Source: Verrucomicrobiota bacterium | GTDB taxonomy: Bacteria; Verrucomicrobiota; Verrucomicrobiia; Limisphaerales; UBA11358 | DNA: 64,000 nt | Assembly (NCBI GenBank): GCA_049516255.1 | Contig: JBEKTH010000010.1 | Location: forward strand, 8,865 to 72,864 | Direction of reading: 5' to 3' | Shown: positions 20,394 through 40,665 of the stretch, one piece after another | Numbering within the stretch: the first letter of the stretch is position 1 | Layout: every line of letters begins with the position of its first letter | The notes under the pieces: generated by a model | What the model saw: only the letters and a program-made list of their open reading frames with translations | The model's database searches: none | What the model was told of the DNA's origin: nothing | Position numbers and translations under genes: made by a program

Positions 20394-21272
20394 ATGGCCC
20401 ATTTAAAACCGCTAAAATTAAAGCCGCGATTACGATCGGGATTTACGTTGATTGAATTGCTGGTGGTGATTGCCATCATCGCCATTTTGGCGGCCTTGTT
20501 GCTGCCGGCGCTGGCCAACGCGAAGCTGAAGGCGCAGTCCATTTTAGACACATCGAACCTCCGGCAATGGGGACTGGGCTTTCACATGTACGCCAATGAC
20601 CACAACGACAGCATGCCGCCGGGTTGGTATGATCCGAATGGGATGTGGATGGTGGTTTTGCAACCGTATCTCCCCGGGGTTACCAACGGCTCCGGCATGG
20701 GTGGGAAGATGTGTTTCTGCCCGGCCGCCACCAAAACGCGGGACTCACTTGCGAATTTTTGGGTTACCTCCGGCACCACTGCTCTGGCCTGGGGTATAAT
20801 GGGGACAAATGGTTATCCGGTTGGTTCGTCCTCCACACCCGTTGGCGGGACATCGGTTTGGGGCCGTCCGGGGATGGGCGGCAGTTATGGATTCAACGGC
20901 TGGATGGCCAATCCTCCGGTGGCGGATATGGCGGTTGATCCTGCGGCGACCGGGTATTGGAGGACCTTGACCGCGGCCAGCAGATTCTCAAAGGCTCCAT
21001 TATTTGCCGATTGCGTGTGGCAGGGGGCCAACCCGCTGCCAACCGATCAGCCGCCCAATTTTCCAGGCGACAGTCCTGTGGGCGCGCTCATGGGGGCTTT
21101 TTGCATACCCAGGCATCCCGTTAATGGTCGAAACCCCATCAATATGACATTCATCGATGGTTCGGTCAGGCCTACGGGGTTGAGACAGCTATGGTATCTG
21201 CCTTGGAGCAGGAATTACGACACGTCGATGATACCCCACATCATGCCGTCCTGGGTTAAATCTTACAACTGA
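20394..21272 (+). CDS. Prepilin-type N-terminal cleavage/methylation domain protein (type II secretion pseudopilin-like, PVC-expanded family)
   Basis: ORF 20247 (TTG)..21272 trimmed to ATG 20394. Motif [34 protein letters not shown] is the class III signal peptide. C-terminal ...[21 protein letters not shown] resembles the H-Xn-DG tail of this family. Confidence 0.8.
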
Positions 21273-21356
21273 TCAAAGTGATGACCAGCTGGCTTCCCGG
21301 CGTTGACAATTTTATTTATTTTACAAAGTGGATGAACCAAACAAACCCATAAAACC

Positions 21357-24077
21357 ATGAAAAAAATACTAACCTTGGCGGTTATCGGCGGCGTTCTTTT
21401 GAGCGCGGTACCGTTCGCATCGGCGGTGACAGTTTACACCGAAAATTGGGGCACAGGCAACAGTGGCGTTACGGGGAACGGCAATATCAATACGGTTGGG
21501 TGGACGGCGATTGCCGCATCTCAGAGTGCGGGACCCTATGTCGGCATCTACACGGCCACGGGCGCGAACGACCCCACGCTCGGTCTGGCATTGCCCGCTA
21601 ACACGGTTTATTTCACAGGCTTTCAAAGCACCAACCTGCCCGGCATGTTTTATACCACCGACACGTTAGGCCAGGGAATCGGCGGCAATTCCAGTTTCAG
21701 CGATATCAATCCGACACTTTACACGAATCTGACATTTAACGTCGAAGTCCGCGGCGCGGCAACGGACACCAACTACTTTGCCGTTCAGATAGGAGGACAA
21801 TGGTACGTTGCCACATCTTATCAGTTGCCCGGCTCCAGCGGCGTCGGGTATCCGCAGTTTACCAATGATTTCCTGGTTTATACCAACCCGGCAAATGTCT
21901 GGCAAAGCCTGACCATAAACGGCACCACCAATGTAACGATCGGTTCTGTGGCCTCTCCCAGTTTGACTGCAACCATCACCGGCATTGGCATCGTTGAACT
22001 TCCCACCGGTGGCGGATTCAATTACAACGAGCTCATCATCAATCAAGGACCGGGCGATTTCCCGCAGATCGCGCCGACCAATACCGCGCCGGCAGTATCG
22101 CCGCAGTACGTGTACGTTGGCGGCGGGGCCGCATTTGTATCCACCTTTGCCGGTCCACTGTTGGTCTACCAATGGCAGACCAATGGCGTGAATATAAGCG
22201 GGGGAAGATACCTTGGCACAGCCGGTCCGACGATGACCATCACCAATTGCAACCTCAGCGATGCGGGTTCCTTCTACATGGTGGTCGTCACGAACAAATT
22301 TGGCAGTGCCACAAACAGCGGTCTGCAGTTAATCGTCAGCAATGTGCCGCCAGGTCTTTTGTATGCTGAGAATTTCCCTTATCTTGGACCTAACGGCAAC
22401 TACCCCATCACCGGTGTCGGCTGGGTCGTCGCGGCGCCGGCAAACACAAGTGTGGGGATTTACCAGGTTGGGGGTGGTCTAGGCGACGCCTTTTCATATT
22501 CTCCCACCGCCACCACCAACGCGTATTACACGACGGATACCAATGAGATCGGAATCTCCGGACTGCCGTTTGTGGACATAAACCCCGCCAGTTATCCCTA
22601 TGTAACTTTCCAGGCCGGGTTTGTCCCGGGGAATGCCGCCGGCCAGGTTTCCGGAGCCATTTCTGTCTACTGGGCGGTCGAGATGACCAATGGATGGTAT
22701 TGCTCGGCGCAACCGCAAGCGATAGATCTCTCGGCGTTAAGCCCTTATCAAACCTATCAATATGGATTTAACTCCGCGGCGAGCAACTGGAACAATCTCA
22801 CCATTACCAGCAGCAATGCGGTGATCGGCGCCGTAGCCTCAAGCCCCTTGACAGGAAATATCATTGGTGCCGGCCTGGTGGTTGCTCACAATACCGGGAG
22901 CGGTTCGGACATGAATTTCCAGAATTTCGAAATCATTACCAACCAGGCTGTGGGAACGCTGCCAAATATTGGCGTGACCGGACACCCCCTCGATGTCAGC
23001 GTCGCTTCGGGAGGCGGTGCCAGCTTTGGCGTTTCCGCCACTGGATCAGCCCCCTTCACGTATGGTTGGACGACCAACGGTGTCACCGTTTCCAATGGAG
23101 GCAGGGTTTCGGGTGCGACCACCCCGACATTGACCATAGCAAATCTGAATAACAACGACAACGGCCTGCAGATTATCGCTTATGTCACCAACTCTGCCGG
23201 TGTCGACAACAGCAGCACGGGGAATGGTGTCACTGATCCCGGTTATGGCGCCACCACCTTGACGGTAACCAACCCTCCCGTTGGCTTCGTTTATTCAGAA
23301 GTGTTTCCTTTTGTCGGACCCACGGTGGCCAACTATCCCATCAGCGGTGTCGGATGGGTGGAAGCGGTTCCGAGCACTCCCAATGCCCTCTTCCAGGCGG
23401 CGGCCCAGACCAGTGCAGGAGCGGTTTTTGCCTACCTCGGAAATGCGGGCACGACGGTGTATTACGCGACCACGGCCACCGACACCAACCAGTCGGGATT
23501 GCCGTTTCCGAATGTCGACCTGGCGGCTTATCCGAGCTTGAACTTTTCAGTGGACATCGCGCCAAATTCGGCGACCGCCAGCAACGTCACCGCATATCTT
23601 GCGGTACAACTTAATGGCACCAACTGGTATGTTGCCGCGAACGCCTTGCTGGGGCCAAACGCCGCTTCGAACTCTGTGTACTCCACGTACACATCGCCCT
23701 TTAATCCCGCCGCGGCCAATTGGAAGAACCTGACTGTGACCAGTTCCGGTGGAATTATCGGATCAACGGCAACCAGCAACTTGAGCGGGGTGATGACGGG
23801 AGCGGGTCTGGTATTTGTCACCACTGGGACCGGAGGGACCTTTAATTTCGGCAACTTCGTGATTACGGGAACCGGAGTCGGCGGCATCATCACTGGCCCG
23901 CTTGCGGGTGGAAGCATCAATCTGTCATGGGTGGGGAACCCGGCGGTGAAACTGCAGAGTTCCACCAACCTGGACAGCAGCCTGAATTGGCAGGATGTGC
24001 CCAACACGTATGGGCTCTATTCGCTGCCCGTGTCGGTCACCGGACCCCAGAAGTTTTTCCGGTTGAAGACACCATGA
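21357..24077 (+). CDS. Large secreted surface protein: three repeats of an unassigned ~200-aa module, two Ig-like domains, C-terminal '...FFRL' domain
   Basis: Signal peptide MKKILTLAVIGGVLLSAVPFASA. Modules start near aa 24, 334 and 644 (VYTENWG.., LLYAENFPYLGPNGNYPITGVGW.., FVYSEVFPFVGPTVANYPISGVGW..). Ig/I-set-like segments: YQWQTNGVNISGGRYLG...LSDAGSFYMVVVTNKFGSA and YGWTTNGVTVSNGGRVSGATTPTLTIANL. Confidence 0.7.
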   Translation: MKKILTLAVIGGVLLSAVPFASAVTVYTENWGTGNSGVTGNGNINTVGWTAIAASQSAGPYVGIYTATGANDPTLGLALPANTVYFTGFQSTNLPGMFYTTDTLGQGIGGNSSFSDINPTLYTNLTFNVEVRGAATDTNYFAVQIGGQWYVATSYQLPGSSGVGYPQFTNDFLVYTNPANVWQSLTINGTTNVTIGSVASPSLTATITGIGIVELPTGGGFNYNELIINQGPGDFPQIAPTNTAPAVSPQYVYVGGGAAFVSTFAGPLLVYQWQTNGVNISGGRYLGTAGPTMTITNCNLSDAGSFYMVVVTNKFGSATNSGLQLIVSNVPPGLLYAENFPYLGPNGNYPITGVGWVVAAPANTSVGIYQVGGGLGDAFSYSPTATTNAYYTTDTNEIGISGLPFVDINPASYPYVTFQAGFVPGNAAGQVSGAISVYWAVEMTNGWYCSAQPQAIDLSALSPYQTYQYGFNSAASNWNNLTITSSNAVIGAVASSPLTGNIIGAGLVVAHNTGSGSDMNFQNFEIITNQAVGTLPNIGVTGHPLDVSVASGGGASFGVSATGSAPFTYGWTTNGVTVSNGGRVSGATTPTLTIANLNNNDNGLQIIAYVTNSAGVDNSSTGNGVTDPGYGATTLTVTNPPVGFVYSEVFPFVGPTVANYPISGVGWVEAVPSTPNALFQAAAQTSAGAVFAYLGNAGTTVYYATTATDTNQSGLPFPNVDLAAYPSLNFSVDIAPNSATASNVTAYLAVQLNGTNWYVAANALLGPNAASNSVYSTYTSPFNPAAANWKNLTVTSSGGIIGSTATSNLSGVMTGAGLVFVTTGTGGTFNFGNFVITGTGVGGIITGPLAGGSINLSWVGNPAVKLQSSTNLDSSLNWQDVPNTYGLYSLPVSVTGPQKFFRLKTP

Positions 24078-24127
24078 GTTTAGTCACTGACGTTGTGTCA
24101 ACTTGGGGGATGTAAAGTTGGTGCAAG

Positions 24128-24168
24128 GCTGGAGCTGTTCGCGTTAAAACCGGAATGGCTCCAGCTTT
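24128..24168 (+). terminator. Possible terminator hairpin after the 906-aa gene
   Basis: GCTGGAGC ... GCTCCAGC 8-bp stem followed by TTT, but the loop is 22 nt, so this is weak. Confidence 0.25.
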
Positions 24169-24174
24169 AAGTTA

Positions 24175-25527
24175 ATGTGTTATTGTTTAATCGAAGGCAA
24201 TGTTTTGAGACTGAAATTGACATGTTGGATGTTTATCGTTTCGGTGCTTTTCGTTCCACGGACGCTGCCTGCACAAAATAATTTCATCGCCGGCGCGGAT
24301 CTTTCATTGCTGGCGTATTTTGAAACCAATGGAATCGTCTATAAAAGCAACGGTCTGACCGGGGATGCGATTCAAATCCTGAAAAACCAGGGCATCACCT
24401 GTGTGCGCCTTCGATTATTTACCAGCAGCGCGGCCCAGGCCCAGGCCGATCCCTATGATTACATAAACAATCTCACCTATACTGTTCCACTGGCGGTGCG
24501 GGTCAAAAACGCCGGATTGCAATTCCTGCTCGATTTTCATTACTCGGACACCTGGGCCGACCCGAGCCACCAAGCCACACCTGCCGCGTGGTTGACCAAC
24601 ACCTTCTCCCAGATGGTGCAGCAGATGTACACTTACAACAGTAATGCCGTCGCCACCTTTGCCGCGGCAGGGGCGATGCCGGATTTCGTCCAGATTGGAA
24701 ATGAAATCACGCAAGGCATGTTGTTCACCAACAACGCGGGAGCAACCATCGGACAGGTTTCGGGCAGCTACAACACGTCGTGGTCGCAACTTGGGCAATT
24801 AATGAAAGCAGCGGTTCAGGGCATCCAGGACGCTGCGAATGCTGCCGGCGTGACCATGCCCAAAATTATTGTTCATATCGACCGGGGAGGGGATTGGGCC
24901 ACCACGGAATGGTTCTTTGACAACCTGACCTATCAAGGAGTTCCCTTTGACATCATCGGTGAGAGTTATTATCCGTTCTGGCACGGCCCTTTGAGCAGCC
25001 TGAGCAACTGCCTGACCAATGCCGCACAACGTTATGGCAAGCCGGTGATCGTGGCGGAGACGGACTTCCCCTGGACCTCTTCGACGAACATCTACGGCAT
25101 TCCGGCCACCACCAACGGACAGGTTCAATATGTGGTCGCGCTGGCCCAGGTGGTAAAGAGCGTGCCCAACAACTTGGGAGCCGGAATTTTCTGGTGGGGA
25201 ACGGAATATCAGGTTCCAAATGCAAACGAGGCCGGGTTTGGAACCCGATCGTTCTTCGATGGCAACGGCAACGTGCTGCCGTCGGCGAATGCGTTGGGTC
25301 AAATTGTGGCGCCGACCGATCTCAGCGTCGTCTTGAGTGGTCCGGATTTGATGTTGCAATGGCCATTGAGCGGGGCGGGGATGACCTTGATGACGACCAC
25401 GAATCTGTCGGCGCCAACAGCCTGGTTGTCGGTGACCAATCCCGTTCAAAATACAGGTACGGTGTTTGATGTAACCCTGCCGATGGATTCCACGTTGAGC
25501 CGTTTTTACCGGTTGCAATCGGAATGA
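24175..25527 (+). CDS. Glycoside hydrolase family 53 (arabinogalactan endo-beta-1,4-galactanase) with C-terminal '...FYRL' domain
   Basis: GH53 hallmarks: GADLSLL..., GITCVRLRLF, LLDFHYSDTWADP, acid/base VQIGNEIT, nucleophile region VIVAETDFPW. An alternative TTG start at 24205, preceded by GAAGG, would give a cleaner signal peptide. Confidence 0.85.
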   Translation: MCYCLIEGNVLRLKLTCWMFIVSVLFVPRTLPAQNNFIAGADLSLLAYFETNGIVYKSNGLTGDAIQILKNQGITCVRLRLFTSSAAQAQADPYDYINNLTYTVPLAVRVKNAGLQFLLDFHYSDTWADPSHQATPAAWLTNTFSQMVQQMYTYNSNAVATFAAAGAMPDFVQIGNEITQGMLFTNNAGATIGQVSGSYNTSWSQLGQLMKAAVQGIQDAANAAGVTMPKIIVHIDRGGDWATTEWFFDNLTYQGVPFDIIGESYYPFWHGPLSSLSNCLTNAAQRYGKPVIVAETDFPWTSSTNIYGIPATTNGQVQYVVALAQVVKSVPNNLGAGIFWWGTEYQVPNANEAGFGTRSFFDGNGNVLPSANALGQIVAPTDLSVVLSGPDLMLQWPLSGAGMTLMTTTNLSAPTAWLSVTNPVQNTGTVFDVTLPMDSTLSRFYRLQSE

Positions 25528-25919
25528 CCGGGTGCCAACCCGACGAGCGAGGTGTGCTTTGGCCTGTGAACCGGCAACCCGGATCGGTCAAAAAATCGGG
25601 CAAGGCATTGCTGATTTGGGGATTGACATGGACTGCTGACCTGATTTTTCTGTTTTTTTGTTCTTCTGTTTCCGTGCTCGCTCAGGAATCTTTTCGCGCG
25701 CCCGCCCGCGTTGCGGTCTGAGTTCGGCAAGGTGATTGCTAAATAGCGCGATGTCATATTTTCCAAACAAACCTGAGCCGTTGGGTTTGGGGATGGCCAT
25801 TGGTCTGGCCGCCTTAAAAACCATCCAATTATTGAGTAATTCGGGGTTTTCCGGAACCGGCTCACCCCGGCGTGATGGGATTTATTCCATTTTCCAATGC
25901 GAGCAACCGGTGTTTTAAA

Positions 25920-27398
25920 ATGTCCACCAAGTCCAAAACGCAACCGATCAAGCGCCTGCTCGGACAATACGAGCACGACGGATTTTTCGACGAAATGCTC
26001 GATGCCGAGGGCCAGTTGCGTCCACATTACCGGCAGTTCCGGGAGTTGTTCCAAACCCTGACGACGAGGGAATTCGAACACAAACGCCAGTCGATTGACC
26101 TCGCGTTTTTGCGCCAGGGCATAACGTTCAACGTCTATGGCGATTCAGCGGGCGCGGAGAAGATTTTCCCCTTCGACCTGCTGCCGCGGGTCATTCCGGC
26201 CGGGGAATGGGAGAAGCTCGAACGCGGTCTCGCGCAGCGCATCACGGCGTTGAACCTGTTCCTGCGCGACATTTATCACGAACAGAAAATCCTGCGGGAC
26301 GGCGTCATCCCGCCGTCCTATGTCCTCTCGGGAAAACATTTCCGGCGCGAGTTCGTGAACTTCAATGTGCCGAAGGACATTTACATTCACATTTGCGGCA
26401 CGGATTTGATCCGCGACGACAAGGGCCAATACCTGGTGCTGGAGGACAACGGCCGCTGTCCCAGCGGCGTCAGTTACGTTCTGGAAAATCGCCGGGCGAT
26501 GAAGCGGGCCTTTCCCGCCATGTTCGAGGGCATTGGCGTGCAGCCGGTCGAACATTATCCGCAGGAACTGCTCAAGATGTTGCAACACATCGCGCCCGCC
26601 GGCGTGGCGGACCCGACCATTGTTTTGCTCACGCCCGGCGCCTACAACTCGGCCTACTTTGAGCACACCTATCTCGCCCGGCAGATGGGCATTGAAATTG
26701 TCGAGGGCCGTGATCTGGTGGTGCGCGACGCGCGGGTGTTCATGCGCACGACCAAGGGGCTTCAGCCGGTGCACGTCATTTACCGGCGCATCGACGATGA
26801 TTTCCTCGACCCGACGGTCTTTCGCCGTGATTCGCTGCTGGGCGTGCCGGGCATCGTCCACGCCTATCGCGCCGGCAACGTGTCGCTCGCCAACTCCATC
26901 GGCACGGGCATCGCGGACGACAAGGTCATGTATTATTTTGTGCCGCGCATGATCAAGTATTACCTCGACCAGGAGCCGCTGCTGGCCAACGTGCCGACCT
27001 ATCTGGCCAGCGAAGCAGAAGACAAGAAGTACATTCTTGAACATCTCGACCAGCTGGTGGTCAAGGCGGCCAATGAATCCGGTGGTTACGGCATGTTGAT
27101 GGGGCCGAAGGCGACCAAGGCGGAAATCGCGGCCTTCCGCAAAAAAATCGAGGCCGAACCGCGCAATTACATCGCGCAGCCGATGATTTCACTGTCCCGG
27201 CACCCGACGTGTGTGGAAGACGATAATTATTTTGAAGGCCGGCACATCGACCTGCGGCCCTATATTATTTACGGCGAGAAGATTGCCATCGTGCCCGGCG
27301 GCCTGACGCGCGTGGCATTGCGCAAAGGTTCGCTCGTCGTCAATTCATCACAGGGCGGTGGCAGCAAGGACACCTGGGTTCTGTATGGGGACGAATAA
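25920..27398 (+). CDS. Circularly permuted ATP-grasp type 2 protein (DUF404/DUF407 family), split version
   Basis: ORF 25872..27398 trimmed to ATG 25920 ([14 protein letters not shown]...). It is clearly paralogous to the N-terminal ~480 aa of the 871-aa protein at 37112. Shared blocks include GITFNVYGD, (Y/W)LVLEDN/WWVVSDR, YFEH(T/A)[63 protein letters not shown]. Confidence 0.85.
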
Positions 27399-27403
27399 AA
27401 CAA

Positions 27404-27496
27404 TTTACGATATGCGATATGCGATTGACGTGTTCGTTTTGAACAACGACGCGCGAGTTCAATTGGGTCACGTAAATCGTAAATCGTAAATCAAAA
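27404..27496. repeat. Interspersed repeat core (CGATATGCGATTGACG ... (CGTAAAT)x3) ending at the alpha-E start codon
   Basis: It shares the CGATAT.CGATTGACG box and the tandem CGTAAAT heptamers with the internal part of the elements at 49679 and 57812. The 17-mer AATCGTAAATCAAAAAT (27482-27498) recurs at 33559-33575. Confidence 0.6.
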
Positions 27497-28540
27497 ATGT
27501 TAAGCCGTGTTGCCAATTCACTTTACTGGATGTCGCGTTACATCGAACGCGCCGAAAACACCGCGCGCATCGTGGACGTGAATTTACAGATGCTCCTGGA
27601 TCTGAGGAACCTGGATGAGGAGCGCCTGGCGCAACATTGGCTGCCCATCGTCGAGACCACCGGCGACGAAAAGCAGTTTTTCCAGCTCCACAAGAAGGCC
27701 ACCGGCCAGGCCGTCACGGAATTTCTCGTGTTTCAAACGGAGAACCCCAATTCCCTCGTCTCGGCCATCTGTCAGGCGCGCGAAAATGCCCGCATGATCC
27801 GCGACCAGATTACCATTGAGTTCTGGGAGGAGTTGAACCGGCTTTACTGGTTCGTAAAAATGCCGGAAGCGCGGCGGATTTGGAAGGAAAGCCCCAGCGA
27901 GTTCTTCCAGCAGGTCAAAAACAGCTCGTTGCACCTGATTGGCCTCGGTTACGCGACGCTGTTGCGCAACGAAGGCTGGTGGTTTGTGCAGGTGGGAAAA
28001 TTTCTGGAACGGGCCGACAAAACGTCGCGCATTCTCGACTTGCGTTCCGGGGCGTTGCCGGAGAAGGGCGCGCCCGAGGCGGCCGGCCAGCCGGAAACCT
28101 TGGAGTGGTCGGCCATTCTGCATTCCTGCAGCGCCTGGGACGCCTACAAAACGCTGCATGGTGCGGAGGTGCATCCGCGCGGGGTGGTCGAGTTTCTTTT
28201 GTTCAACGATGATTTCCCCAGGTCGGTGCGCTTTTGCGTCGGCCAGTTGAACCACGCGTTGCGCCGCATCTCCGGCGTGCCGGACGGCCGCTTTTGCAAT
28301 GACGCCGAGAAACTGGCCGGGCGGCTGGTCGCGGAATTGCAGTTCAGCACCGTGGATGAAATTTTTGATCAAGGCCTGCATTTTTACCTCGATCAATTGC
28401 AGTCCCGGCTCAACGACATTGGCGCCGCGCTGTTCGACGCTTACATTTTTCAGCAGTTCAACAACCTGGAGGACGAAATCATGGTGCAACAGGAGGAGCA
28501 ACAACAACAGTCCAGAAGCATCCGCAAAAACATTTTATGA
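27497..28540 (+). CDS. Alpha-E domain protein (DUF403), split version
   Basis: N-terminus MLSRVANSLYWMSRYIERAENTARI is typical of alpha-E proteins. It is paralogous to the C-terminal ~320 aa of the 871-aa fusion (LPSRLADNFFWLGRYSERADETARLL). Confidence 0.85.
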   Translation: MLSRVANSLYWMSRYIERAENTARIVDVNLQMLLDLRNLDEERLAQHWLPIVETTGDEKQFFQLHKKATGQAVTEFLVFQTENPNSLVSAICQARENARMIRDQITIEFWEELNRLYWFVKMPEARRIWKESPSEFFQQVKNSSLHLIGLGYATLLRNEGWWFVQVGKFLERADKTSRILDLRSGALPEKGAPEAAGQPETLEWSAILHSCSAWDAYKTLHGAEVHPRGVVEFLLFNDDFPRSVRFCVGQLNHALRRISGVPDGRFCNDAEKLAGRLVAELQFSTVDEIFDQGLHFYLDQLQSRLNDIGAALFDAYIFQQFNNLEDEIMVQQEEQQQQSRSIRKNIL

Positions 28541-29931
28541 AACGCATTGGCATCCTGACCGCCGGCGGCGACACCCCCGCGCTGAACGCCACCATTCACG
28601 GCGCGGTGGTCCGCGCAAACCAGCTCAAGGTCGAAATTGTCGGCCTCATCAAGGGGTTCAACTGCCTGTTCAATCCGCGCGTGCCGCACGTTCATCTCAA
28701 CCCGCTGTTTCAGGAAATTCCCGAGCTCGACCCCACCAAGGGCGGCACGCTCATCGGTTCGTCCCGGGATTATGTCGATCCCGACAATAAAAAGGACCTC
28801 GACATGGTCGAATCGCGGTTGAAAAAACTCGGAATTGAGGGGCTGATCTGCATCGGTGGAGACGGCACCCTTAATGGTCTGCAACCGCTGGCCGAGCGTC
28901 TGCCCGCCGTGCTGGCCCCCAAGACCATTGATAACGATCTGGGGTTGAATTATCCCAGCGAACCCGATGAGTGGGTGCGGGTGAACGACGCCGCAGCCAA
29001 ACGTGGTTATCGCTACAAACAGGTTCCGGCCACCGAGACCTTCGATCTGAATCAGATCGTCAACTACGCCACGCCCGGCTACACCACGGCGGTTTTTGTG
29101 TCCGCAGGCGGTGTGGAGCGAATCCGCACGACGGCGGAAAGCCACCGGCGCATCGCCATCATCGAAGTCATGGGCCGCCATTCCGGGTACATCGCGCTCG
29201 GCACGGCTTATGGCCAGCCGGACATCATTCTCATTCCCGAACATCCGCTCGACCTCGAACACCTCGTCCAGCGCGTCAAACACATTTACGACCTCCAGAA
29301 GAACGTCGTCATTGTCTGCGGCGAAGGCATCGTGGACGAGCAGGGCCGCGAACTGGGCGCGGAAACCAAATCCACCGATCCCTCGGGCAATATTGTGCTC
29401 AGCGGCGCGGCGGACGCGTTGCGCAACAAGCTGGTCCAGATGATCGGCGACCGCTATTTCCAGCTGTATCGCCGCGGCGAATCGGCGAAGGAAGCCATCT
29501 TCACGCGCAAAGTCGGCCATACGCAGCGGGGCGGGCGGCCAATCCTGTTTGACCGGTTTTACGCCGGGTTGCTCGGCGCCAAGGCGGTGGACCTGCTGCT
29601 GGAAGGCCGCAACAATGCCGTTTCCGTTCTACAATACAATTCCGACAAGGGCTTTCACGTGGAGGGCTATGACGCGAACCGCTTCCGGGATCGCTGGGGC
29701 CTCATTCATGCGCGCAAGCTGCATCCGGCGCTGTACGATGCGAAATTGATGAAACCGTCCAAACTGGGCATTGATTATTTGCTGCCGATTTTCACCGACG
29801 CCATCGGCAACGACGACGCCGAGCACATGCGCTCGACGTTGTTTGATCCCGGCAACATTGCGCAGCCGTATCACTCCATCAACACGGACGTGCATAAACG
29901 CATCCGCTACCTGGAAACGGAGGCCGCATGA
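28537..29931 (+). CDS. pfk: 6-phosphofructokinase (phosphoryl-donor specificity ambiguous: ATP or PPi)
   Basis: ATGA overlap with the alpha-E stop. PFK motifs: GILTAGGDTPALNA, CIGGDGTLNG, PKTIDNDL, MGRHSGYIAL, GHTQRGG. Gly in GGDG is ATP-type at the E. coli G104 position. Lys in PKTIDND is PPi-type at the G124 position. The signature is therefore mixed. Confidence 0.88.
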   Translation: MKRIGILTAGGDTPALNATIHGAVVRANQLKVEIVGLIKGFNCLFNPRVPHVHLNPLFQEIPELDPTKGGTLIGSSRDYVDPDNKKDLDMVESRLKKLGIEGLICIGGDGTLNGLQPLAERLPAVLAPKTIDNDLGLNYPSEPDEWVRVNDAAAKRGYRYKQVPATETFDLNQIVNYATPGYTTAVFVSAGGVERIRTTAESHRRIAIIEVMGRHSGYIALGTAYGQPDIILIPEHPLDLEHLVQRVKHIYDLQKNVVIVCGEGIVDEQGRELGAETKSTDPSGNIVLSGAADALRNKLVQMIGDRYFQLYRRGESAKEAIFTRKVGHTQRGGRPILFDRFYAGLLGAKAVDLLLEGRNNAVSVLQYNSDKGFHVEGYDANRFRDRWGLIHARKLHPALYDAKLMKPSKLGIDYLLPIFTDAIGNDDAEHMRSTLFDPGNIAQPYHSINTDVHKRIRYLETEAA

Positions 29932-32900
29932 GCTCACCCGCCAGCTTGATTCCCTACATCAACGTCAAACTGTCGCTGCTCGGCTTCCTGCCGGTGGCGA
30001 CCGGCGACGGGGCGGAACTTGGCGATATTGTTTCCTCGCTGATTGCGCAGTACCGCGAGAAGGAGCGATTGCTGGCCAATCATCTTTGCGCCGCCGACCA
30101 GCGGATTCAAACCTTCCTCTACGATTACCTGCAGGACGTGCCGGTGACCAAACTGCCGTTGCGCACGTTGACGCTGGACCGCCCCGGCATGGCACAGGTG
30201 CTGTCGCTGCCGGTGGATCGCGATGAATTCGCCTCCAGCATTCTCAACTCCTACCGGGTCAAGCAGGGCGTGCTCCACAATCCCAAGAGCGACCGGCGCA
30301 CCACCCAGGGCATCTTTCACGTGGCCGAAGGCGGCCTGCCGATTCCCGACGACAAAATCGGCGTACCCAAGGCGGTTTTTGGGAAAATGTTGAGTCTCGC
30401 CTTCAATCCGCCCCGCGAAATCATGCGCCTGCCGTTCACCGCCACGCAGGCGCAGCCCGCCGAGTGTTTCGTTTCATTGCTGCTGCGGCCCGTCGTCTGC
30501 CCCGAGGTTCCCGGCTTTACGCCTCGGAAAGCAATGGAGGTTCGCTTCTTCGCGCCGGGCAACCTCGTCAGTAACCTCGATTTCGTCGAAAACATCTTTG
30601 GCAACGGCGGCGACCCGAACCTGCCGGAAAACGACGCCGGCCTCGACACCGAACATTGGAGCGGTCACACCGGCTGCGTCATCCTCGCGCCGCACCTGAC
30701 CAAAATCACCAAGAAGGACGCCGGCCTGCCGCCCTGGGACAAGGCCACCGAACGCCAGCGCCGCGACGGCATGTGCTGGAAGGACGAATGGGAGTTCTAC
30801 AACAACGGCGGCGCCTTCAAGCTCACCTGCCGCGACGAAACCGGCGTCATCGTCACCATTATTGCGGACAATTATTACGGTTACTGCAAGAAGGAGGTGA
30901 AGACGCAGATCAGTTACGCGGCCAATCTTTACGGCCTGTCCGAAGAGGAACACGCCGGCGGCGCGCTCGTCTTTCCCGCCTACGACCTCGGCGAGGAATT
31001 CAGCGGCGACCTGCACGTCAAGCGCATGGGCCATTCCTTTGCGGAGGTCAGTTCCGTCCATCGCGAGGCCATGGAGTTGAAGTCCGAGGGTTACGGCGTG
31101 GATAAAAAATATCCGGACATCATTTACGTGCCGGAGGACGCGCACTTTGATCTGCACAAGCAGAAAATTTCCTGGCCCGGCGGCAAGACCGAACACGCCA
31201 TGAAACTGCTGCCCGGCAAGACCTATGTGCGCCCGTCCGGCTACAAAATCCGCCTGGAAAAACCCGGCGCGAACCGCGCCTGGCGTCTCGTGGGCACGGT
31301 CGCCGAAGGCACGCTCTGCCACAAACCCTGCACCGTTTCCGGCGGCGGCAAATCGGAGATTTCCAAACCCATCACCGACGCGGTGCTTACCGGGCCGGTG
31401 TTCGTCGCGGATTTCAAAAGGGATTTTGACCAGGTGGCCGAATTGATCGCGCGCGATTATAGCGGACGTTTCCGCGACCCGGCGCGGGTGGACCAGCGTT
31501 CGATCCTCGACCCGGAACGTTCGCTCGGTTCGGTGATTAAATTGCTCATCCCCGACGAGCACGACTACAAGCCCGAATATAACGCGTGGCTGGAAACCGT
31601 GCCGCAATACCTGCGCGAACTGGTGTTCGTCGTGAAACGCTATTACAAGCCGGAATGGGGTGACCATTGGCGCGAACAGTTCAGCGTGGACATCATCAAT
31701 GGCAAGCCGGCCAATGAATTGAAATGCGAGAACCGCAAGCTCGTCACCACGTATCTGCGCGTGGGCTTCGACAGCGACGGCTCATGGCGCACGTTCGGCC
31801 TGCGCAAGGATTTCAATCCGGCGCTGAAAATCCAGGCCGAGGACGACATTACCGCGTCAGTGGTCGTGCCGCCGGGGTTGCTCAAGGATTTGCCCGAACT
31901 GGAGGCGGACCAGGGCGCCTCGGTGAAATTCGTCCTCAACACCGAGGCCCGCCTGTTCCAGCGCCCGGATGACGCCATTCATCGCGGCTATGACAAGGTG
32001 ACGGAAGCCGACTTTTCCCGGCCGGACAATTTCTTCTCCAATTACGAGCCGCTGCCGTCAAAGTTCGCGCGTGAATTGATCGAGGACGCCATCGGTTTTT
32101 ATCAGTTTACCGAGCCGATGCAGGCGCTGATCAAGAGCGTGGCGGCAAATGGCGTCAGTTATTTTGTGTGTTCCGCCAACCCACGCCTCGTGGATGGCAA
32201 ACCGACCAAGAACCCGCGTTACCTGCAAATCCGGCCCGACCTGACCGCGCCTCGGGAAGGTTATCTGGCGGAAATGGGCGCGCGGTTGCGCCGCCGTCTG
32301 CCGCCGGGCCGATCCGTGCTCAATCCCGTGGCCGCCGTGCTGCCGGGCCGCCGCAACAACCCGCCCGAAACCGGCATCCGTTCGCTCGCGTGCTACAACC
32401 CGATTCATTACTTCGAACTGCCGGAGTTGTTCATGGAGTTCATCTGCAGCATGACCGGCAAATCGCCGTCCACGACGGGCGCCGGATCGGAAGGCGCGCT
32501 CACCAAGGCGCCGTTCAATGCCCTGCCGCCCATCATTGACCTGAACAACGCGCTGGTTTCTTTCATTCTCACCGGCCATCACGCGTTCGTCACCGCCGCC
32601 GGCTGCGTCGGACCGAAGGTCCGCGTGGACCACGACGTCAGTCTGCTGGTGCCGGAGGTTTGGTGCCGCATGGCACCGGAGGAACGTGATCCCCAATGGT
32701 TGATGGCCGAACGCTGCCTCGAAAAATGCGAGGATTTTGAGCATAACGGCAAAAAGGTCCTGGCCGGCCGGCTGGGTTACCGCATTAATGCGCGGTTTGT
32801 CCGCAATTTCTTCGGGCGCGTGTTCAATCATCCGCAGGCCGTCTTCACCGATGAAATGCTGAAGCCCGAATTACAGGGCCTGGACATTTTTGTGGACGGC

Positions 32901-33326
32901 ATGGACAACATCGTCACCACCCAGAAGCGCGTGGCCAAAATGTATTTCGATGACGGCAGCATTGCCCAGGCGTGTCCGCCGTTGAAGGCGCTGCTGCACA
33001 TCATGCTCAACGACGCGTGGGAGGGCAAAGGGCTCGCCGACCCTGAATTCCGGAAAATGTTCACGCGCGAATCACTGCTGGCCGGCGGCTGGTACGCCGC
33101 GCGGCTGGCGGCGAAACAGAAGATTGACCGGCAATTGTGGCGCCGCCATGTGGACTACCTGGACAAGTTTCTGAAACGCGCCAGTCATGCCGACGAGGCC
33201 GCGCGCCTTGGCATTGCCGACCGGCTGTCCCGCGCGAAGAAGACCCTGGAGCAGGTCGAATCGCCAGCCTACCTGGACACCCTGCGCGGCACCATCGGCG
33301 CGGAACCCATTGAAAATTACCTGTAA
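29928..33326 (+). CDS. Large (1132 aa) conserved protein of unknown function; possible PPi-dependent PEP carboxykinase (hypothesis)
   Basis: ATGA overlap with the pfk stop. Uninterrupted, non-repetitive, cytosolic-looking ORF. Its ~130-kDa size and adjacency to a PFK with a PPi-type Lys fit the PPi-type PEPCK described from Entamoeba/Propionibacterium. I cannot verify homology from memory. The CDS is near-certain; the function is tentative. Confidence 0.5.
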   Translation: MSSPASLIPYINVKLSLLGFLPVATGDGAELGDIVSSLIAQYREKERLLANHLCAADQRIQTFLYDYLQDVPVTKLPLRTLTLDRPGMAQVLSLPVDRDEFASSILNSYRVKQGVLHNPKSDRRTTQGIFHVAEGGLPIPDDKIGVPKAVFGKMLSLAFNPPREIMRLPFTATQAQPAECFVSLLLRPVVCPEVPGFTPRKAMEVRFFAPGNLVSNLDFVENIFGNGGDPNLPENDAGLDTEHWSGHTGCVILAPHLTKITKKDAGLPPWDKATERQRRDGMCWKDEWEFYNNGGAFKLTCRDETGVIVTIIADNYYGYCKKEVKTQISYAANLYGLSEEEHAGGALVFPAYDLGEEFSGDLHVKRMGHSFAEVSSVHREAMELKSEGYGVDKKYPDIIYVPEDAHFDLHKQKISWPGGKTEHAMKLLPGKTYVRPSGYKIRLEKPGANRAWRLVGTVAEGTLCHKPCTVSGGGKSEISKPITDAVLTGPVFVADFKRDFDQVAELIARDYSGRFRDPARVDQRSILDPERSLGSVIKLLIPDEHDYKPEYNAWLETVPQYLRELVFVVKRYYKPEWGDHWREQFSVDIINGKPANELKCENRKLVTTYLRVGFDSDGSWRTFGLRKDFNPALKIQAEDDITASVVVPPGLLKDLPELEADQGASVKFVLNTEARLFQRPDDAIHRGYDKVTEADFSRPDNFFSNYEPLPSKFARELIEDAIGFYQFTEPMQALIKSVAANGVSYFVCSANPRLVDGKPTKNPRYLQIRPDLTAPREGYLAEMGARLRRRLPPGRSVLNPVAAVLPGRRNNPPETGIRSLACYNPIHYFELPELFMEFICSMTGKSPSTTGAGSEGALTKAPFNALPPIIDLNNALVSFILTGHHAFVTAAGCVGPKVRVDHDVSLLVPEVWCRMAPEERDPQWLMAERCLEKCEDFEHNGKKVLAGRLGYRINARFVRNFFGRVFNHPQAVFTDEMLKPELQGLDIFVDGMDNIVTTQKRVAKMYFDDGSIAQACPPLKALLHIMLNDAWEGKGLADPEFRKMFTRESLLAGGWYAARLAAKQKIDRQLWRRHVDYLDKFLKRASHADEAARLGIADRLSRAKKTLEQVESPAYLDTLRGTIGAEPIENYL

Positions 33327-33349
33327 ACGTTAATGAAAAAAGAATTTGG

Positions 33350-33490
33350 CCCTGACCCCGGCCCTCTCCCATCCGATGGGAGAGGGGGAATCATCGTCAG
33401 CCGGGCGGCTAAACCGATGCGTTTGGATTTTTCACAGGCTGCACTTGACTGTTCCCTCTCCCCGGGGGAGAGGGTCAGGGTCAGGGCGAG
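33350..33490. repeat. Pair of REP-like GC hairpins (CCCTCTCCC-loop-GGGAGAGGG with GGGTCAGGG tails) in inverted orientation
   Basis: Hairpins at 33362-33386 and 33454-33474. Flanks are ccctgacccc (left) and tcagggtcaggg (right). Same family as 44760-44800. Confidence 0.7.
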
Positions 33491-33546
33491 CGTTCGATTC
33501 GATTCCGTGCCGGGTCGAGGCCCGGCGCTCCGGAATTTCAGCGCGC

Positions 33547-33579
33547 TCGTCAATCGTCAATCGTAAATCAAAAATTCCC
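33547..33579. repeat. Heptamer-repeat leader (TCGTCAATCGTCAATCGTAAATCAAAAAT) directly upstream of the large transglutaminase gene
   Basis: Contains the 17-mer AATCGTAAATCAAAAAT (33559-33575), identical to 27482-27498. Confidence 0.6.
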
Positions 33580-36500
33580 GTGTCCATCCACGTCGCGCTC
33601 CACCACAAAACGCATTACCGGTACGATCGGTTGGTCTGTCTCGGACCGCAGGTCATCCGGCTGCGGCCCGCGCCCCATTCGCGGACGCGGATTTTGAGTT
33701 ACGCGCTCCGGGTCAAACCGGAAAAACACTTCATCAACTGGGCGCAGGACCCGCAGTCCAACTACCAGGCGCGCCTGGTTTTTGAACAACCCACCCGCGA
33801 ATTCCTCGTCGAAGTGGATCTGGTGGCGGAAATGGCGGTGTTGAATCCATTCGATTTTTTCCTCGAACCCGGCGCGCAGAAATTTCCTTTTGGTTACGAC
33901 CCATCGCTCGATCATGAACTCGCGCCATTCCAGCGCAAATGCTGGCTGACGCCGAATTTCATGTCGTATCTGGCGAATCTGCGTCGCGCATTGTTGGGCG
34001 AAGCCGGGCGCCGGACGAGACAGCAGCGTTTGGAATTGCCGGACAGTGAAAAGCTGACGACCAACGATTTCATCGTCGCCGTCAATCAACGCCTCTGGAA
34101 GGACATCAAATACACCATCCGGCTCGAACCCGGGGTGCAGACCCCGGAAGAGACGCTCGCGAAATTGAGCGGTTCGTGTCGCGATTCCGCGTGGTTGCTG
34201 GTGCAACTCATGCGCCACCTCGGCCTCGCCGCGCGCTTTGTCAGCGGCTACCTCATCCAACTCAAGCCCGACGTGAAATCGCTCGATGGGCCGGGCGGCG
34301 CAGAAAAGGATTTCACCGACCTGCACGCCTGGACGGAGGTTTATCTGCCCGGCGCCGGCTGGATCGGCCTGGATCCGACGAGCGGTTTGCTCGCGGGCGA
34401 AGGCCATATTCCGCTCGCCTGCACGCCCGATCCCACCAGTGCCGCGCCGATTTCCGGCGGCGTGGACAAATGCGAAACCGAATTTGCCTTCGACATGACC
34501 GTGACCCGTATTTACGAATCGCCGCGCGTCACCCTGCCGTACTCGGACGAGCAATGGTCGAAAATCGAGTCGCTCGGCCACGCCATTGACGCCGATTTGA
34601 AAAAAGGCGACGTGCGCCTGACGATGGGCGGCGAGCCGACGTTCATTTCGGTTGAAGATCCCGACGGCCCGGAATGGAACTTTACCGCTGTCTCGCAGAA
34701 AAAGCGCCTTTTGTCCGGCGAACTCATCCGGCGGTTGCGCCGCAAATTTGCGCCCGGCTCGTTGCTGCATTATGGCCAGGGCAAATGGTATCCCGGCGAA
34801 CAACTTCCGCGCTGGGCGCTCGCGGCCTACTGGCGCAAGGACGGCGTGCCGATCTGGAAGGACGATTCGCTCATTGCCGATGAATCGAAGGATTACGGCC
34901 ATGGCGCGAAGGAGGCGAAGGAATTACTCACGCGCATTGCCAGAATCACCGGCGCCGATCCCAAATATCTTCTGCCGGCCTATGAGGACGCGTTTTACTA
35001 CCTGTGGAAGGAACGCCGCTTCCCGTCGAATGTCACGCCGGAGAAATCCAATCTCAAGGACAAGCTGGAGCGCGACCGCATCGTCCGCTTGTTCCAGCAG
35101 GACCTCGGCGAGGTCGCCGGCTACGCGCTGCCCATCAAGCGGGCGTTGTATCCGCCTTCGCAAAGCTCCGGCGCGACAAGCGGCGCGACGGCGGGCCTGC
35201 CGCGCCGTGGCGAAGCGCAGGCGGGCTGGATGTCCGGCGCGTGGTTTCTGCGCGACGATGACACGCTCTGGCTCATCCCCGGTGATTCGCCGATGGGACT
35301 GCGCCTGCCGATTGATTCGATTCCGTGGGTGGCGGAAAAGGATTATCCGTGGATCCGGCAGCAGGACCCGTCGAATCCCCGATTGCCGGAACTGCCGAAG
35401 GAATTTCCGTATCGGGTGCGCAAACCGGAAACGACCGGGCAACGGTTTTTGCGCGGCGGCGGTGCGCCAACGCCCGCGGGGTACGGCCCCGGCCAGCGTG
35501 CGCAGCAACGCGGCGAACTGGAAGAGGAGCGCGTCGAATTGCCGCCGTTGCCGCCGGATTACGATCCGAACCGCCGCCCGGTGCAAGGCCAGAGCGCGCC
35601 GTGGATTGTCCGCACGGCGATGTGCGTCGAACCGCGTGGCGGGCGGTTGCACGTGTTCATGCCGCCGGTCGCCACCACGGAAGATTATCTGGATTTGATC
35701 GCCGGCATCGAGACCGCCGTCACCGAAATGGGCACGCCGGTCATCATCGAAGGCGAAACGCCGCCGCGCGACCCGCGCCTGCACAAGCTTGCCGTCACAC
35801 CGGATCCCGGCGTCATCGAGGTAAACCTGCATCCGAGCCGATCGTGGGACGAACTGGTCGAGCGCACAACGGTGCTTTATGAGGAAGCGCGCCTGACGCG
35901 GCTGGGCACGGAAAAATTCATGCTCGATGGACGCCACACCGGCACGGGTGGCGGCAACCACATCATCATCGGCGGCGACACGCCGCAGAACTCGCCGGTG
36001 CTGCGCCGGCCGGATTTGCTGCGCTCGCTCATCGCCTACTGGCAGAATCATCCTTCGTTGAGCTGGCTCTTCAGCAGCTTGTTCATCGGCCCGACCTCGC
36101 AGGCGCCGCGCATTGACGAGGCGCGCAACGATTCGCTTTACGAACTCGAGGTCGCGTTCAAGGAACTGGAACGCAACACGCAACGGTTCGGCTACACGCC
36201 GCCGTGGCTGTGCGACCGCCTGTTCCGCAACCTGCTGATTGACGCCAGCGGCAACACCCATCGTGCCGAGTTCAGCATCGACAAGCTGTTCCCGCCGGAA
36301 AGCAGCGGCGGCCGGCTCGGCCTGGTCGAAATGCGTGCGTTTGAAATGCCGCCGCATGCGCGCATGAGCCTGGCGCAGCATCTGCTTCTGCGCGGTCTCG
36401 TGGCGAAATTCTGGAACGAACCCTATAAAAACGGCCTCGTCCGCTGGGGCACCGACATCCATGACCGCTGGATGCTGCCGCACTTTTGTGAAACGGATTT

Positions 36501-37119
36501 CAAGGACGTCCTCCGCGATTTGCGCGACGCCGGTTACCCGTTTGAATCCGACTGGTTCGCGCCGCACTTTGAGTTCCGGTTTCCGTTCATCGGCGACCTG
36601 GAACAGCGTGACATCCGGATCGAGCTGCGCACAGCGCTCGAACCTTGGCACGTGCTCGGCGAGGAACCGGGTGGCGGCGGCACGGTGCGTTACGTGGACA
36701 GCTCGGTTGAACGCCTGCAGGTCAAGGCGCGCGGACTTGCGGGCGACCGGTTCGCTTTCACCTGCAACGGCCGGCGCGTGCCGCTGCACCCGACGGGCAC
36801 CAACAGCGAAGGCGTCGCGGGCGTGCGTTACCGCGCGTGGCAGCCGCCCGAATGTTTGCAGCCGACGATTCCGTCGCACGCGCCGCTGCGTTTCGATCTT
36901 TATGACACGTGGAACGGGCGTTCGCTCGGCGGTTGCCAGTATCACGTCGCGCATCCCGGCGGGCGCAGCTATGAAACGTTTCCGGTGAACAGCTACGAGG
37001 CCGAGTCACGCCGGCTGGCGCGCTTTTTCCGCCACGGCCACACGGCGGGCAGGACGGAAATTCCGCCGCCGCCGGTGAATCCGGACTTTCCCTTCACCCT
37101 GGATTTACGCAATGTCTGA
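33580..37119 (+). CDS. Large transglutaminase-family protein (Bact_transglu_N + transglutaminase core + DUF2126-like C-terminal region)
   Basis: ORF 33346..37119 trimmed to GTG 33580 (VSIHVALHHKTHYRYDR is a typical Bact_transglu_N start). The removed extension is the translated REP hairpins. Catalytic Cys region GSCRDSAWLLVQLMRHLGLAARFVSGY, then HAWTEVYLPGAGWIGLDPT (His/Asp). Confidence 0.85.
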   Translation: MSIHVALHHKTHYRYDRLVCLGPQVIRLRPAPHSRTRILSYALRVKPEKHFINWAQDPQSNYQARLVFEQPTREFLVEVDLVAEMAVLNPFDFFLEPGAQKFPFGYDPSLDHELAPFQRKCWLTPNFMSYLANLRRALLGEAGRRTRQQRLELPDSEKLTTNDFIVAVNQRLWKDIKYTIRLEPGVQTPEETLAKLSGSCRDSAWLLVQLMRHLGLAARFVSGYLIQLKPDVKSLDGPGGAEKDFTDLHAWTEVYLPGAGWIGLDPTSGLLAGEGHIPLACTPDPTSAAPISGGVDKCETEFAFDMTVTRIYESPRVTLPYSDEQWSKIESLGHAIDADLKKGDVRLTMGGEPTFISVEDPDGPEWNFTAVSQKKRLLSGELIRRLRRKFAPGSLLHYGQGKWYPGEQLPRWALAAYWRKDGVPIWKDDSLIADESKDYGHGAKEAKELLTRIARITGADPKYLLPAYEDAFYYLWKERRFPSNVTPEKSNLKDKLERDRIVRLFQQDLGEVAGYALPIKRALYPPSQSSGATSGATAGLPRRGEAQAGWMSGAWFLRDDDTLWLIPGDSPMGLRLPIDSIPWVAEKDYPWIRQQDPSNPRLPELPKEFPYRVRKPETTGQRFLRGGGAPTPAGYGPGQRAQQRGELEEERVELPPLPPDYDPNRRPVQGQSAPWIVRTAMCVEPRGGRLHVFMPPVATTEDYLDLIAGIETAVTEMGTPVIIEGETPPRDPRLHKLAVTPDPGVIEVNLHPSRSWDELVERTTVLYEEARLTRLGTEKFMLDGRHTGTGGGNHIIIGGDTPQNSPVLRRPDLLRSLIAYWQNHPSLSWLFSSLFIGPTSQAPRIDEARNDSLYELEVAFKELERNTQRFGYTPPWLCDRLFRNLLIDASGNTHRAEFSIDKLFPPESSGGRLGLVEMRAFEMPPHARMSLAQHLLLRGLVAKFWNEPYKNGLVRWGTDIHDRWMLPHFCETDFKDVLRDLRDAGYPFESDWFAPHFEFRFPFIGDLEQRDIRIELRTALEPWHVLGEEPGGGGTVRYVDSSVERLQVKARGLAGDRFAFTCNGRRVPLHPTGTNSEGVAGVRYRAWQPPECLQPTIPSHAPLRFDLYDTWNGRSLGGCQYHVAHPGGRSYETFPVNSYEAESRRLARFFRHGHTAGRTEIPPPPVNPDFPFTLDLRNV

Positions 37120-40596: not shown

Positions 40597-40665
40597 TCCG
40601 GTTCCGGAAGATTTTTGCAATTTTTGCTCGCCGAGCCGGCGGGTTTTCGCATTGATAGCGCGCGC

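Follow-up and report, generated by a model that had tools for sequence, protein, structure and literature searches.

Two central-metabolism genes lie within an amidoligase gene cluster

The DNA analyzed here (the window) is a stretch of 64,000 nucleotides from contig JBEKTH010000010.1 of a Verrucomicrobiota bacterium (assembly GCA_049516255.1); the source organism was placed as a soil/peat Verrucomicrobium of Pedosphaera/Limisphaerales type. On the plus strand of the window, a gene for a 6-phosphofructokinase (PFK) is followed by a gene for a 1132-amino-acid (aa) homolog of pyrophosphate (PPi)-dependent phosphoenolpyruvate (PEP) carboxykinase (PEPCK), and both are enclosed by genes for ATP-grasp ligases, alpha-E domain proteins, a DUF2126 putative amidoligase, and transglutaminase-like proteins. 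We describe these two genes and their linkage to the surrounding genes, which are referred to below as the amidoligase cluster.

Gene starts were refined from gene calls on identical public contigs, which replaced the starts of a mechanical open reading frame (ORF) list. The first gene of the predicted operon encodes a circularly permuted (CP) ATP-grasp ligase of 492 aa (positions 25920 to 27398; Pfam CP_ATPgrasp_2, 2e-167, and CP_ATPgrasp_1, 2.6e-151); its start was corrected from 25872 to 25920, and a gap of 392 nucleotides (nt) separates it from an upstream GH53 gene. It is followed by the genes for an alpha-E domain protein of 347 aa (27497 to 28540; Pfam Alpha-E, 4.8e-95), for the PFK, a PFK-A family protein of 464 aa (28537 to 29931; PF00365, 1.7e-60), and for the 1132-aa homolog of PPi-dependent PEPCK, or PEP carboxytransphosphorylase (29928 to 33326; PDB entries 6k31 and 8e1u, PF26300). 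The next gene (33580 to 37119) encodes a fusion protein of 1179 aa in which transglutaminase-like N-terminal domains precede a DUF2126 putative amidoligase (Pfam DUF2126, 1294 bits, with Bact_transglu_N and Transglut_core). Its start was corrected from 33346 to 33580, leaving a spacer of 253 nt behind the PEPCK gene; a TTG ORF starting at 33346, which would extend the DUF2126 gene up to PEPCK, was rejected on the basis of the gene calls and of a structured repeat lying in between. A CP ATP-grasp/alpha-E fusion protein of 871 aa (37112 to 39727; Pfam) overlaps the DUF2126 gene by 8 nt and is in turn overlapped by 4 nt by the gene for a transglutaminase-like protein of 290 aa (39724 to 40596; Pfam Bact_transglu_N and Transglut_core), behind which a second transglutaminase-like protein of 293 aa is encoded (40615 to 41496; Pfam). 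The Pfam scan thus found CP ATP-grasp, alpha-E, and transglutaminase-like genes together in one cluster. The initial annotation had placed two apparent central-metabolism genes between two such gene sets, and both the domain content and the same-strand order agree with this.

The same annotation had linked the alpha-E, PFK, and 1132-aa protein genes by ATGA overlaps, and both overlaps can be read directly in the sequence: the TGA stop of alpha-E overlaps the ATG start of PFK at 28537 to 28540 (cattttATGAaacgc), and the stop of PFK overlaps the start of the 1132-aa ORF at 29928 to 29931 (ggccgcATGAgctca), with a GGAGG motif 4 nt before the ATG of the latter. The N terminus of the PFK (MKRIGILTAGGD) matches the Bacillus stearothermophilus PFK from residue 1, and the alignment of the PEPCK starts with residue 10 paired with residue 12 of 8e1u; the two gene starts are therefore credible. 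Overlaps of 4 nt are commonplace in operons. The one at the PFK/PEPCK junction gains its significance because it is conserved across related loci, where an NTGA overlap was found in 29 of 41 adjacent pairs. A scan for consensus promoters and terminators gave a result no better than that for shuffled sequence. The genes from ATP-grasp to transglutaminase are predicted to form a single transcription unit; in some relatives, the series continues with gaps of just a few nucleotides through DUF2126 and the ATP-grasp/alpha-E fusion to the transglutaminase genes. The GC content at third codon positions (GC3) of the PFK and PEPCK genes is 0.76 to 0.79, compared to 0.76 to 0.81 for the neighboring genes; since both GC and GC3 match those of the neighbors, nothing points to recent import. 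Recent horizontal transfer of the two genes was rejected on these grounds and because their orthologs are vertically widespread.

The 1132-aa protein matches PPi-type PEPCKs over nearly its full length

On the basis of its unusual size (about 130 kDa), the 1132-aa protein had initially been suggested to belong to the PPi-type PEPCKs, and similarity searches bore this out. A phmmer search of the PDB sequences returned exactly two chains, AiPEPCK of Actinomyces israelii (6k31; 1290 bits) and the PPi-dependent PEPCK of Propionibacterium freudenreichii (8e1u; 1261 bits), both with an E value of 0 and with an aligned span of residues 10 to 1127 of 1132, and the Pfam family precomputed for the gene on identical public contigs was PF26300 (PEPCK_PPi_lobe_2). 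Local Pfam and NCBIfam scans matched no family to the protein and were discarded as a source of its identity, which was settled by the PDB sequence search and PF26300. NCBIfam holds no PPi-PEPCK model. The NCBI name of the exact protein (MGA2684215.1) and of many homologs, "hypothetical protein", is explained by the lack of a matching local Pfam or NCBIfam model; JGI names some homologs "phosphoenolpyruvate carboxykinase (diphosphate)".

The protein falls into the same length class as AiPEPCK, the P. freudenreichii enzyme, and PEPCK1 to PEPCK3 of Entamoeba histolytica (1132 versus 1131 to 1153 aa). It can be aligned end to end with the first two and has VSGGGKSEISK and other motifs in common with them. 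An alignment of 14 full-length homologs, down to 34% identity, contained 70 invariant columns that include the P-loop-like VSGGGKSE of this motif, and the window protein contains both VSGGGKSE and DNY[FY]GYxKK. When 1.84 billion cluster representatives were searched exhaustively, 2694 family members were found at an E value of ≤1e-3 and 799 at ≤1e-30. Members of the PPi-PEPCK family are scattered patchily over bacteria and protists and are unrelated to ATP- or GTP-dependent PEPCK (PMC8100219). Taken together, the similarities support the assignment of the 1132-aa protein as an ortholog of PPi-dependent PEPCK (EC 4.1.1.38; PEP + CO2 + Pi <-> oxaloacetate + PPi) and make it an additional member of an already known enzyme family. 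It differs from the known PPi-PEPCKs in its context: the window gene is verrucomicrobial, translationally coupled to a PFK gene, and located inside an amidoligase operon, whereas the homologs of other lineages are solitary.

In its gene call, the metagenomic PEPCK homolog P0295 (1420 aa) is fused to a weak PF06439 domain, which may be a gene-calling artifact. In the window, a gene for a 3-keto-disaccharide hydrolase (PF06439/DUF1080; 41641 to 42501) comes after the last transglutaminase gene.

The PFK has an intact active site and probably uses ATP

Residues of the PFK were tallied over 85 orthologs, with the numbering of the B. stearothermophilus PFK transferred by alignment to 3u39. In this alignment, Gly110 of the window protein (in GGDGT) corresponds to Gly104, and Lys129 (in PKTIDND) corresponds to position 124. 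Both residues are invariant in 85 of 85 orthologs, as are the catalytic residues D103, D127, and D129 and the F6P-binding T125. The residues of the fructose 6-phosphate (F6P) site (Arg162, Met169-Gly-Arg171, Glu222, Arg243, His249, and Arg252) are all present in the window protein. From these residues, the protein is predicted to be a catalytically intact PFK-A 6-phosphofructokinase. It shares the fold signature, GGDGT, PKTIDND, and the intact F6P site with the group I (B1) PFK-A proteins, represented by the B. stearothermophilus ATP-PFK, and with the group III "mixed-substrate" PFKs (HAMAP MF_01976, TIGR02483), which include the Streptomyces coelicolor ATP-PFK and the Amycolatopsis methanolica PPi-PFK. 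Relative to the B. stearothermophilus PFK it carries insertions at about residues 137 to 178 and 268 to 324 and a C-terminal extension of about 100 aa, and it scored below every NCBIfam cutoff: 217 bits for the ATP-PFK model NF002872 (cutoff, 253), 215 for TIGR02483 (PFK_mixed; cutoff, 430), and 177 for TIGR02482 (cutoff, 371), with PPi-PFK models at ≤124 bits. These scores and the extra segments set it apart from the curated PFK-A groups as a divergent verrucomicrobial clade outside the curated families. An AlphaFold2 model of the PFK built from 30 close homologs had a mean pLDDT of 44, which is too poor for use. At its C-terminal end, the extension (window positions 29650 to 29931) carries an acidic tail that is conserved (...RYLE(T/E)EAA or ...EEE, as in ...RYLETEAA and ...RYLEEE). 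Several proteins named "alpha-E domain-containing" (253 to 347 aa) are listed as members of the 90%-identity cluster of the PFK, probably a clustering artifact.

The PFK had initially been credited with a mixed donor signature, namely, glycine at position 104 and lysine at position 124, with the lysine read as typical of PPi-PFKs. The two residues are indeed present, but the literature ties this pair to the use of ATP. The PPi-PFK signature Asp104 (GGDD) is replaced by glycine, so that of the PPi-type residues only Lys124 was found; the ATP-PFK signature Gly104 was found, although the cutoff of a curated ATP-PFK model was not reached. The HAMAP rule for mixed-substrate enzymes derives the donor from residue 104 alone, with glycine indicating ATP and aspartate indicating PPi (PMC4383873). 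Koendjbiharie et al. (2019) refer to Bapteste (2003) when they call the Gly/Lys pair "associated with ATP-dependent activity", and Lys124 also occurs outside the PPi enzymes (PMC6543838). The combination of the window PFK has been described for ATP-dependent members that arose from PPi-type ancestors. Lys124 is said, in work by Moore from 2002 and by Chi and Kemp from 2000, to be the PPi-contacting residue of PPi-PFKs. The closest PDB match was the B. stearothermophilus ATP-PFK (3u39; 136 bits), compared to 80 (9dqm) and 53 bits for the PPi-PFK entries. In light of Gly104, the donor is probably ATP; PPi is a possible donor but an unlikely one, and the initial reading of Lys124 as a mark of a PPi-dependent PFK is not supported.

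The donor bears directly on an explanation in which PFK and PEPCK form a closed PPi-economy module, as in Propionibacterium and Entamoeba. A PPi-dependent, reversible PFK (F6P + PPi to fructose 1,6-bisphosphate [FBP] + Pi) would be coupled to the PEPCK (PEP + Pi + CO2 to oxaloacetate + PPi) in order to balance PPi supply and demand, with the PEPCK consuming PPi during gluconeogenesis. Several observations fit such a module. The PEPCK is of the PPi type, Lys124 is invariant, and the PFK lacks the allosteric residues R21 and R25 of ATP-PFKs (it has H21 and V25), as do non-allosteric PPi enzymes. A PPi-using kinase, the KDG kinase of Luteolibacter, is known from Verrucomicrobia (PMC12632266), planctomycetes of the PVC group have been listed with both pfp and PPi-PEPCK in their genomes (PMC7716947), and JGI labels some of the PFK orthologs "ATP-dependent / diphosphate-dependent phosphofructokinase". 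Moreover, the PFK/PEPCK overlap recurs among related loci, and the pair persists outside the amidoligase cluster. Against the module stand the glycine in place of aspartate at position 104 in every ortholog, with rules and literature linking it to ATP also in the Gly/Lys combination; the retention of Gly108; the better scores of ATP-PFK models and structures; and 25 loci at which the PFK lies in the cluster with no PEPCK beside it. We therefore consider a closed PPi module rather unlikely. The PPi-economy pair suggested by the initial annotation is supported in its PEPCK half, through the homology to 6k31 and 8e1u, while Gly104 makes its PFK half doubtful.

The linkage is conserved in one verrucomicrobial lineage

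Two sets of loci were compared. The PEPCK-anchored set was obtained by searching a single genome for each species with a PEPCK profile and consisted of the best 80 loci, which are mostly verrucomicrobial (57 to 94% identity) and were annotated by tblastn with the window proteins. The PFK-anchored set (n = 82) consisted of 80 loci from a metagenome scan (84 to 98% identity) and 2 further PFK loci. In the PFK-anchored set, alpha-E lies immediately 5' of PFK in 58 of the 76 informative loci, so that the linkage to the alpha-E cluster is not an accident of one genome. The adjacency, for which the initial annotation had allowed an accidental insertion if it were unique to this genome, thus recurs in relatives. 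Immediately 3' of PFK, we found PEPCK at 40 loci, DUF2126 at 25, and nothing related at 10.

The arrangement of the genes varied. The full order of the window was found in L017 of the PEPCK-anchored set, and L009 has a rearranged order in which ATP-grasp, alpha-E, PFK, DUF2126, and transglutaminase lie to one side and PEPCK is divergent from them. In more distant genomes, PEPCK occurs in the cluster without PFK: L018 and L057 contain ATP-grasp, alpha-E, PEPCK, and DUF2126; L020 and L030 contain ATP-grasp, alpha-E, DUF2126, the fusion, and transglutaminase, with PEPCK last; and in L010 and L011, PEPCK is followed by DUF2126, with L011 continuing to the fusion and transglutaminase. The converse, ATP-grasp, alpha-E, PFK, and DUF2126 without PEPCK, was found at 25 loci, and PFK-PEPCK pairs without amidoligase genes within 8 kb were found at L116, L121, and others. 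Only 1 of the 33 loci with enough flanking sequence retained the GH53 gene. On the PFK tree, a poorly resolved neighbor-joining tree of sequences that are 84 to 98% identical, loci of different arrangement classes intermingle. No other recurrent neighbor of PEPCK was found, as any Pfam family occurred in ≤4 of 114 neighbors and the remaining loci were heterogeneous. A search for a nonorthologous PFK beside PEPCK in other Verrucomicrobia yielded only two fragments: L037 has an unrelated PFK-like one at a distance of about 10 kb, and L013 has a PFK remnant. The latter is a degraded C-terminal PFK fragment (L013:7920-8346; residues 313 to 460, 48 to 71% identity) about 1.7 kb upstream of PEPCK, in a relative with no intact PFK at this place, and is likely a remnant of an earlier PFK-PEPCK adjacency. 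At L172:5521-8832 and at about 3 to 4 other PEPCK loci, the PEPCK gene is accompanied by a divergent MASE1-HisKA-HATPase-receiver-Hpt hybrid histidine kinase gene; this is the only other faintly recurrent PEPCK neighbor (3 to 4 of 114) and belongs to another verrucomicrobial sublineage.

A preserved internal order, lost flanks, and the existence of all three pairwise links without the third partner form a pattern typical of an operon under selection in one lineage. The linkage is accordingly lineage specific and is not a phylum-wide or cross-phylum rule. Such a pattern could also be attributed to hitchhiking, in which a single ancestral insertion of PFK and PEPCK into a well-expressed operon persisted by descent and local shuffling and would say nothing about the amidoligase system. 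The limitation of the linkage to one verrucomicrobial clade and the solitary occurrence of PEPCK in other lineages and of PFK in several sublineages speak for hitchhiking, and no chemistry that we know of connects PPi, F6P, or oxaloacetate to the reaction of ATP-grasp/glutamine synthetase-like ligases (ATP to ADP + Pi). Nevertheless, the internal order was kept while the flanks were lost, the genes stay together in three pairwise combinations and at least five arrangements, the stop/start overlap was maintained, and no other family recurs beside PEPCK. On balance, hitchhiking appears somewhat unlikely.

Spacers of the cluster contain repeats and hairpins

Two intergenic elements were recorded on the plus strand of the cluster. 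The 98-nt spacer between ATP-grasp and alpha-E (27399 to 27496) contains a hairpin with (CGTAAAT)n heptamer arms, the end of which is 5 nt from the ATG of alpha-E (minimum free energy, -32.5 kcal/mol; z, -3.4). Tandem heptamers of the type (CGTAAAT/AATCGTA)n were located at 27404 to 27496, 33545 to 33573, and 57852 to 57914, that is, directly 5' of the alpha-E start, of the DUF2126 start, and at one unrelated site. Two of these three repeats form a hairpin with an inverted heptamer copy about 50 nt upstream (z, -3.4 and -3.8). The sequence AATCGTAAATCAAAA is present in 4 copies at ≤2 mismatches, compared to 0.11 expected, and the heptamer repeat CGTAAATCGTAAATC also occurs in the loci of relatives, chiefly in the ATP-grasp/alpha-E and pre-DUF2126 spacers. 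A search of the whole window against Rfam, heptamer repeats included, gave no match.

The second element, at 33349 to 33487, is a long imperfect palindrome inside the PEPCK-DUF2126 spacer that comprises two CCCTCTCCC...GGGAGAGGG hairpins (z, -4.6). These hairpins are GC rich and occur at 33349 to 33487 and at 44760 to 44787, in 3 copies versus 0 expected. The length of the spacer differs among loci: it measures 253 nt in L001 to L005 and about 213 nt in L017 and L091 but only a few nucleotides in L087 and L089, and the relatives with a gap of a few nucleotides lack the palindrome. The element may be an inserted repeat resembling repetitive extragenic palindromic (REP) sequences or miniature inverted-repeat transposable elements (MITE), or it may be an attenuator.

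Other genes of the window

Further gene content of the window was noted at positions 28 to 8234, 12178 to 25527, and 46900 to 56362. It includes a patatin-like lipase gene followed by a beta-oxidation set (AMP-binding ligase, thiolase, hydratase/dehydrogenase, and acyl-CoA dehydrogenase); genes for a GH2 protein, a PA14-containing histidine kinase with a response regulator, a prepilin-type N-methyl protein, an Ig-domain protein, and the GH53 protein; an alanine dehydrogenase gene; a minus-strand group of amine oxidase, SDR, and ketoacyl-synthase genes; and genes for a WG-repeat protein and a tryptophan-halogenase-like flavoprotein.

Discussion

The system of CP-ATP-grasp, alpha-E, DUF2126, and transglutaminase proteins was described in 2008 to 2009, and a functional prediction for the ATP-grasp/alpha-E ligases is said to have been made by Iyer in 2009. 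The window cluster has the same domain set and gene order as the COG2308/COG2307/COG1305 "Anbu-type" operon with the DUF2126 cluster. COG2308 is reportedly tied to Anbu; a domain of this proteasome-like Ntn hydrolase was not found among the cluster genes and three downstream genes. Counterparts are the M. tuberculosis clusters Rv2409c-Rv2411c and Rv2566-Rv2569c, which are not known to contain PFK or PEPCK. The window differs from the Anbu-type operon by the two central-metabolism genes located between alpha-E and DUF2126. In the literature searched, no description of PFK or PPi-PEPCK embedded in such a cluster was found, and no functional data on DUF2126, CP_ATPgrasp, Rv2411c, or Rv2567 were found. 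The system has been predicted to act in peptide synthesis or modification (PMC3597751), and Rv2411c and Rv2567 have been used solely as negative candidates (bioRxiv 10.64898/2026.04.15.718621). The embedding of PFK and PPi-PEPCK in an ATP-grasp/alpha-E/DUF2126/transglutaminase operon thus appears to be undescribed, while the enzymes themselves belong to known families.

Overall, we favor, with moderate confidence, an explanation in which the co-transcription of PFK and PPi-PEPCK with the amidoligase system was selected in one lineage, with a PFK that probably uses ATP. Several observations weigh against this explanation. Solitary PFK orthologs exist at 84 to 88% identity (L088, L112, L129, and L162 to L168), 71 of the 80 PEPCK loci across the phylum have no cluster within reach, and outside the clade PEPCK is solitary in homologs at 55 to 60% identity and in one at 73%. 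All linked loci belong to one verrucomicrobial lineage, so that the number of independent events is uncertain, and the interleaving of arrangement classes comes from a weakly resolved tree. The strongly folding palindrome in the PEPCK-DUF2126 spacer could terminate transcription and may split or attenuate the operon in this genome. Finally, the residue-104 rule was derived in other PFK clades, and the window PFK reaches no curated family cutoff.

Under selected co-transcription, one transcript would yield the PFK, the PPi-PEPCK, and the amidoligase/transglutaminase proteins together and in a fixed ratio. By converting F6P to FBP, the PFK would commit hexose phosphate to glycolysis; the PPi-PEPCK would divert PEP to oxaloacetate and C4 acids, with the phosphoryl bond saved as PPi, or operate in the reverse direction in gluconeogenesis. 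The pair would thereby set the flux between sugars and C4 acids, and with an ATP-using PFK, the PPi made by the PEPCK would feed other PPi users. The arrangement is presumably held by selection; the insertion of PEPCK looks older, and that of PFK looks later or lineage restricted. As the reason for the linkage, our favored guess is that the genes are regulated together in one nutritional state and do not share a pathway. The co-occurrence of PFK and PPi-PEPCK recalls the PPi glycolysis of Propionibacterium, Entamoeba, Clostridium thermocellum, and Methylotuvimicrobium alcaliphilum, in which PPi is a possible energy currency. In those organisms, however, the PFK was shown to be PPi dependent, whereas residue 104 of the window PFK points to ATP.

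A direct biochemical link between the two enzymes and the amidoligase system can also be envisaged. Modifying enzymes are often encoded beside their substrates, as is the case for RimK, LysX, or Pup-type ligases, and the ligase/transglutaminase system might modify or process the PFK and/or the PEPCK, or condense PEPCK-derived oxaloacetate via aspartate. The persistent three-way adjacency is compatible with such a link, and the C-terminal extension of the PFK with its conserved acidic tail, which canonical PFKs lack, provides a weak hint. The proposal is purely inferential, and this type of amidoligase cluster is found widely among bacteria with neither PFK nor PEPCK in it (PMC3597751). We regard a direct link as improbable. 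A general tie of the amidoligase system to the PEP-oxaloacetate node and glycolytic entry, be it through modification of PFK or PPi-PEPCK or through a product built from oxaloacetate or aspartate, is improbable as well. If true, it would make the conserved three-way linkage the first contextual clue to the target of the system.

The results allow a protein of abundant peat and soil Verrucomicrobia that is "hypothetical" at NCBI to be named as a PPi-type PEPCK. This name alters the metabolic reconstructions of these polysaccharide degraders, since it would imply an energy-conserving carboxylation of PEP with PPi as a currency. Should the PFK use PPi after all, which is less likely given Gly104, the reactions of PFK and PEPCK would form a closed PPi cycle. 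With its Gly104/Lys124 pair and its place outside the curated families, the verrucomicrobial PFK clade offers a clean test of the residue-104 donor rule. If the linkage reflects only co-regulation, the outcome is a modest result of annotation and context. The conserved but variably arranged linkage nonetheless provides a testable handle on a widespread system, through the carbon or nitrogen state that induces it and through the two enzymes as its candidate targets.

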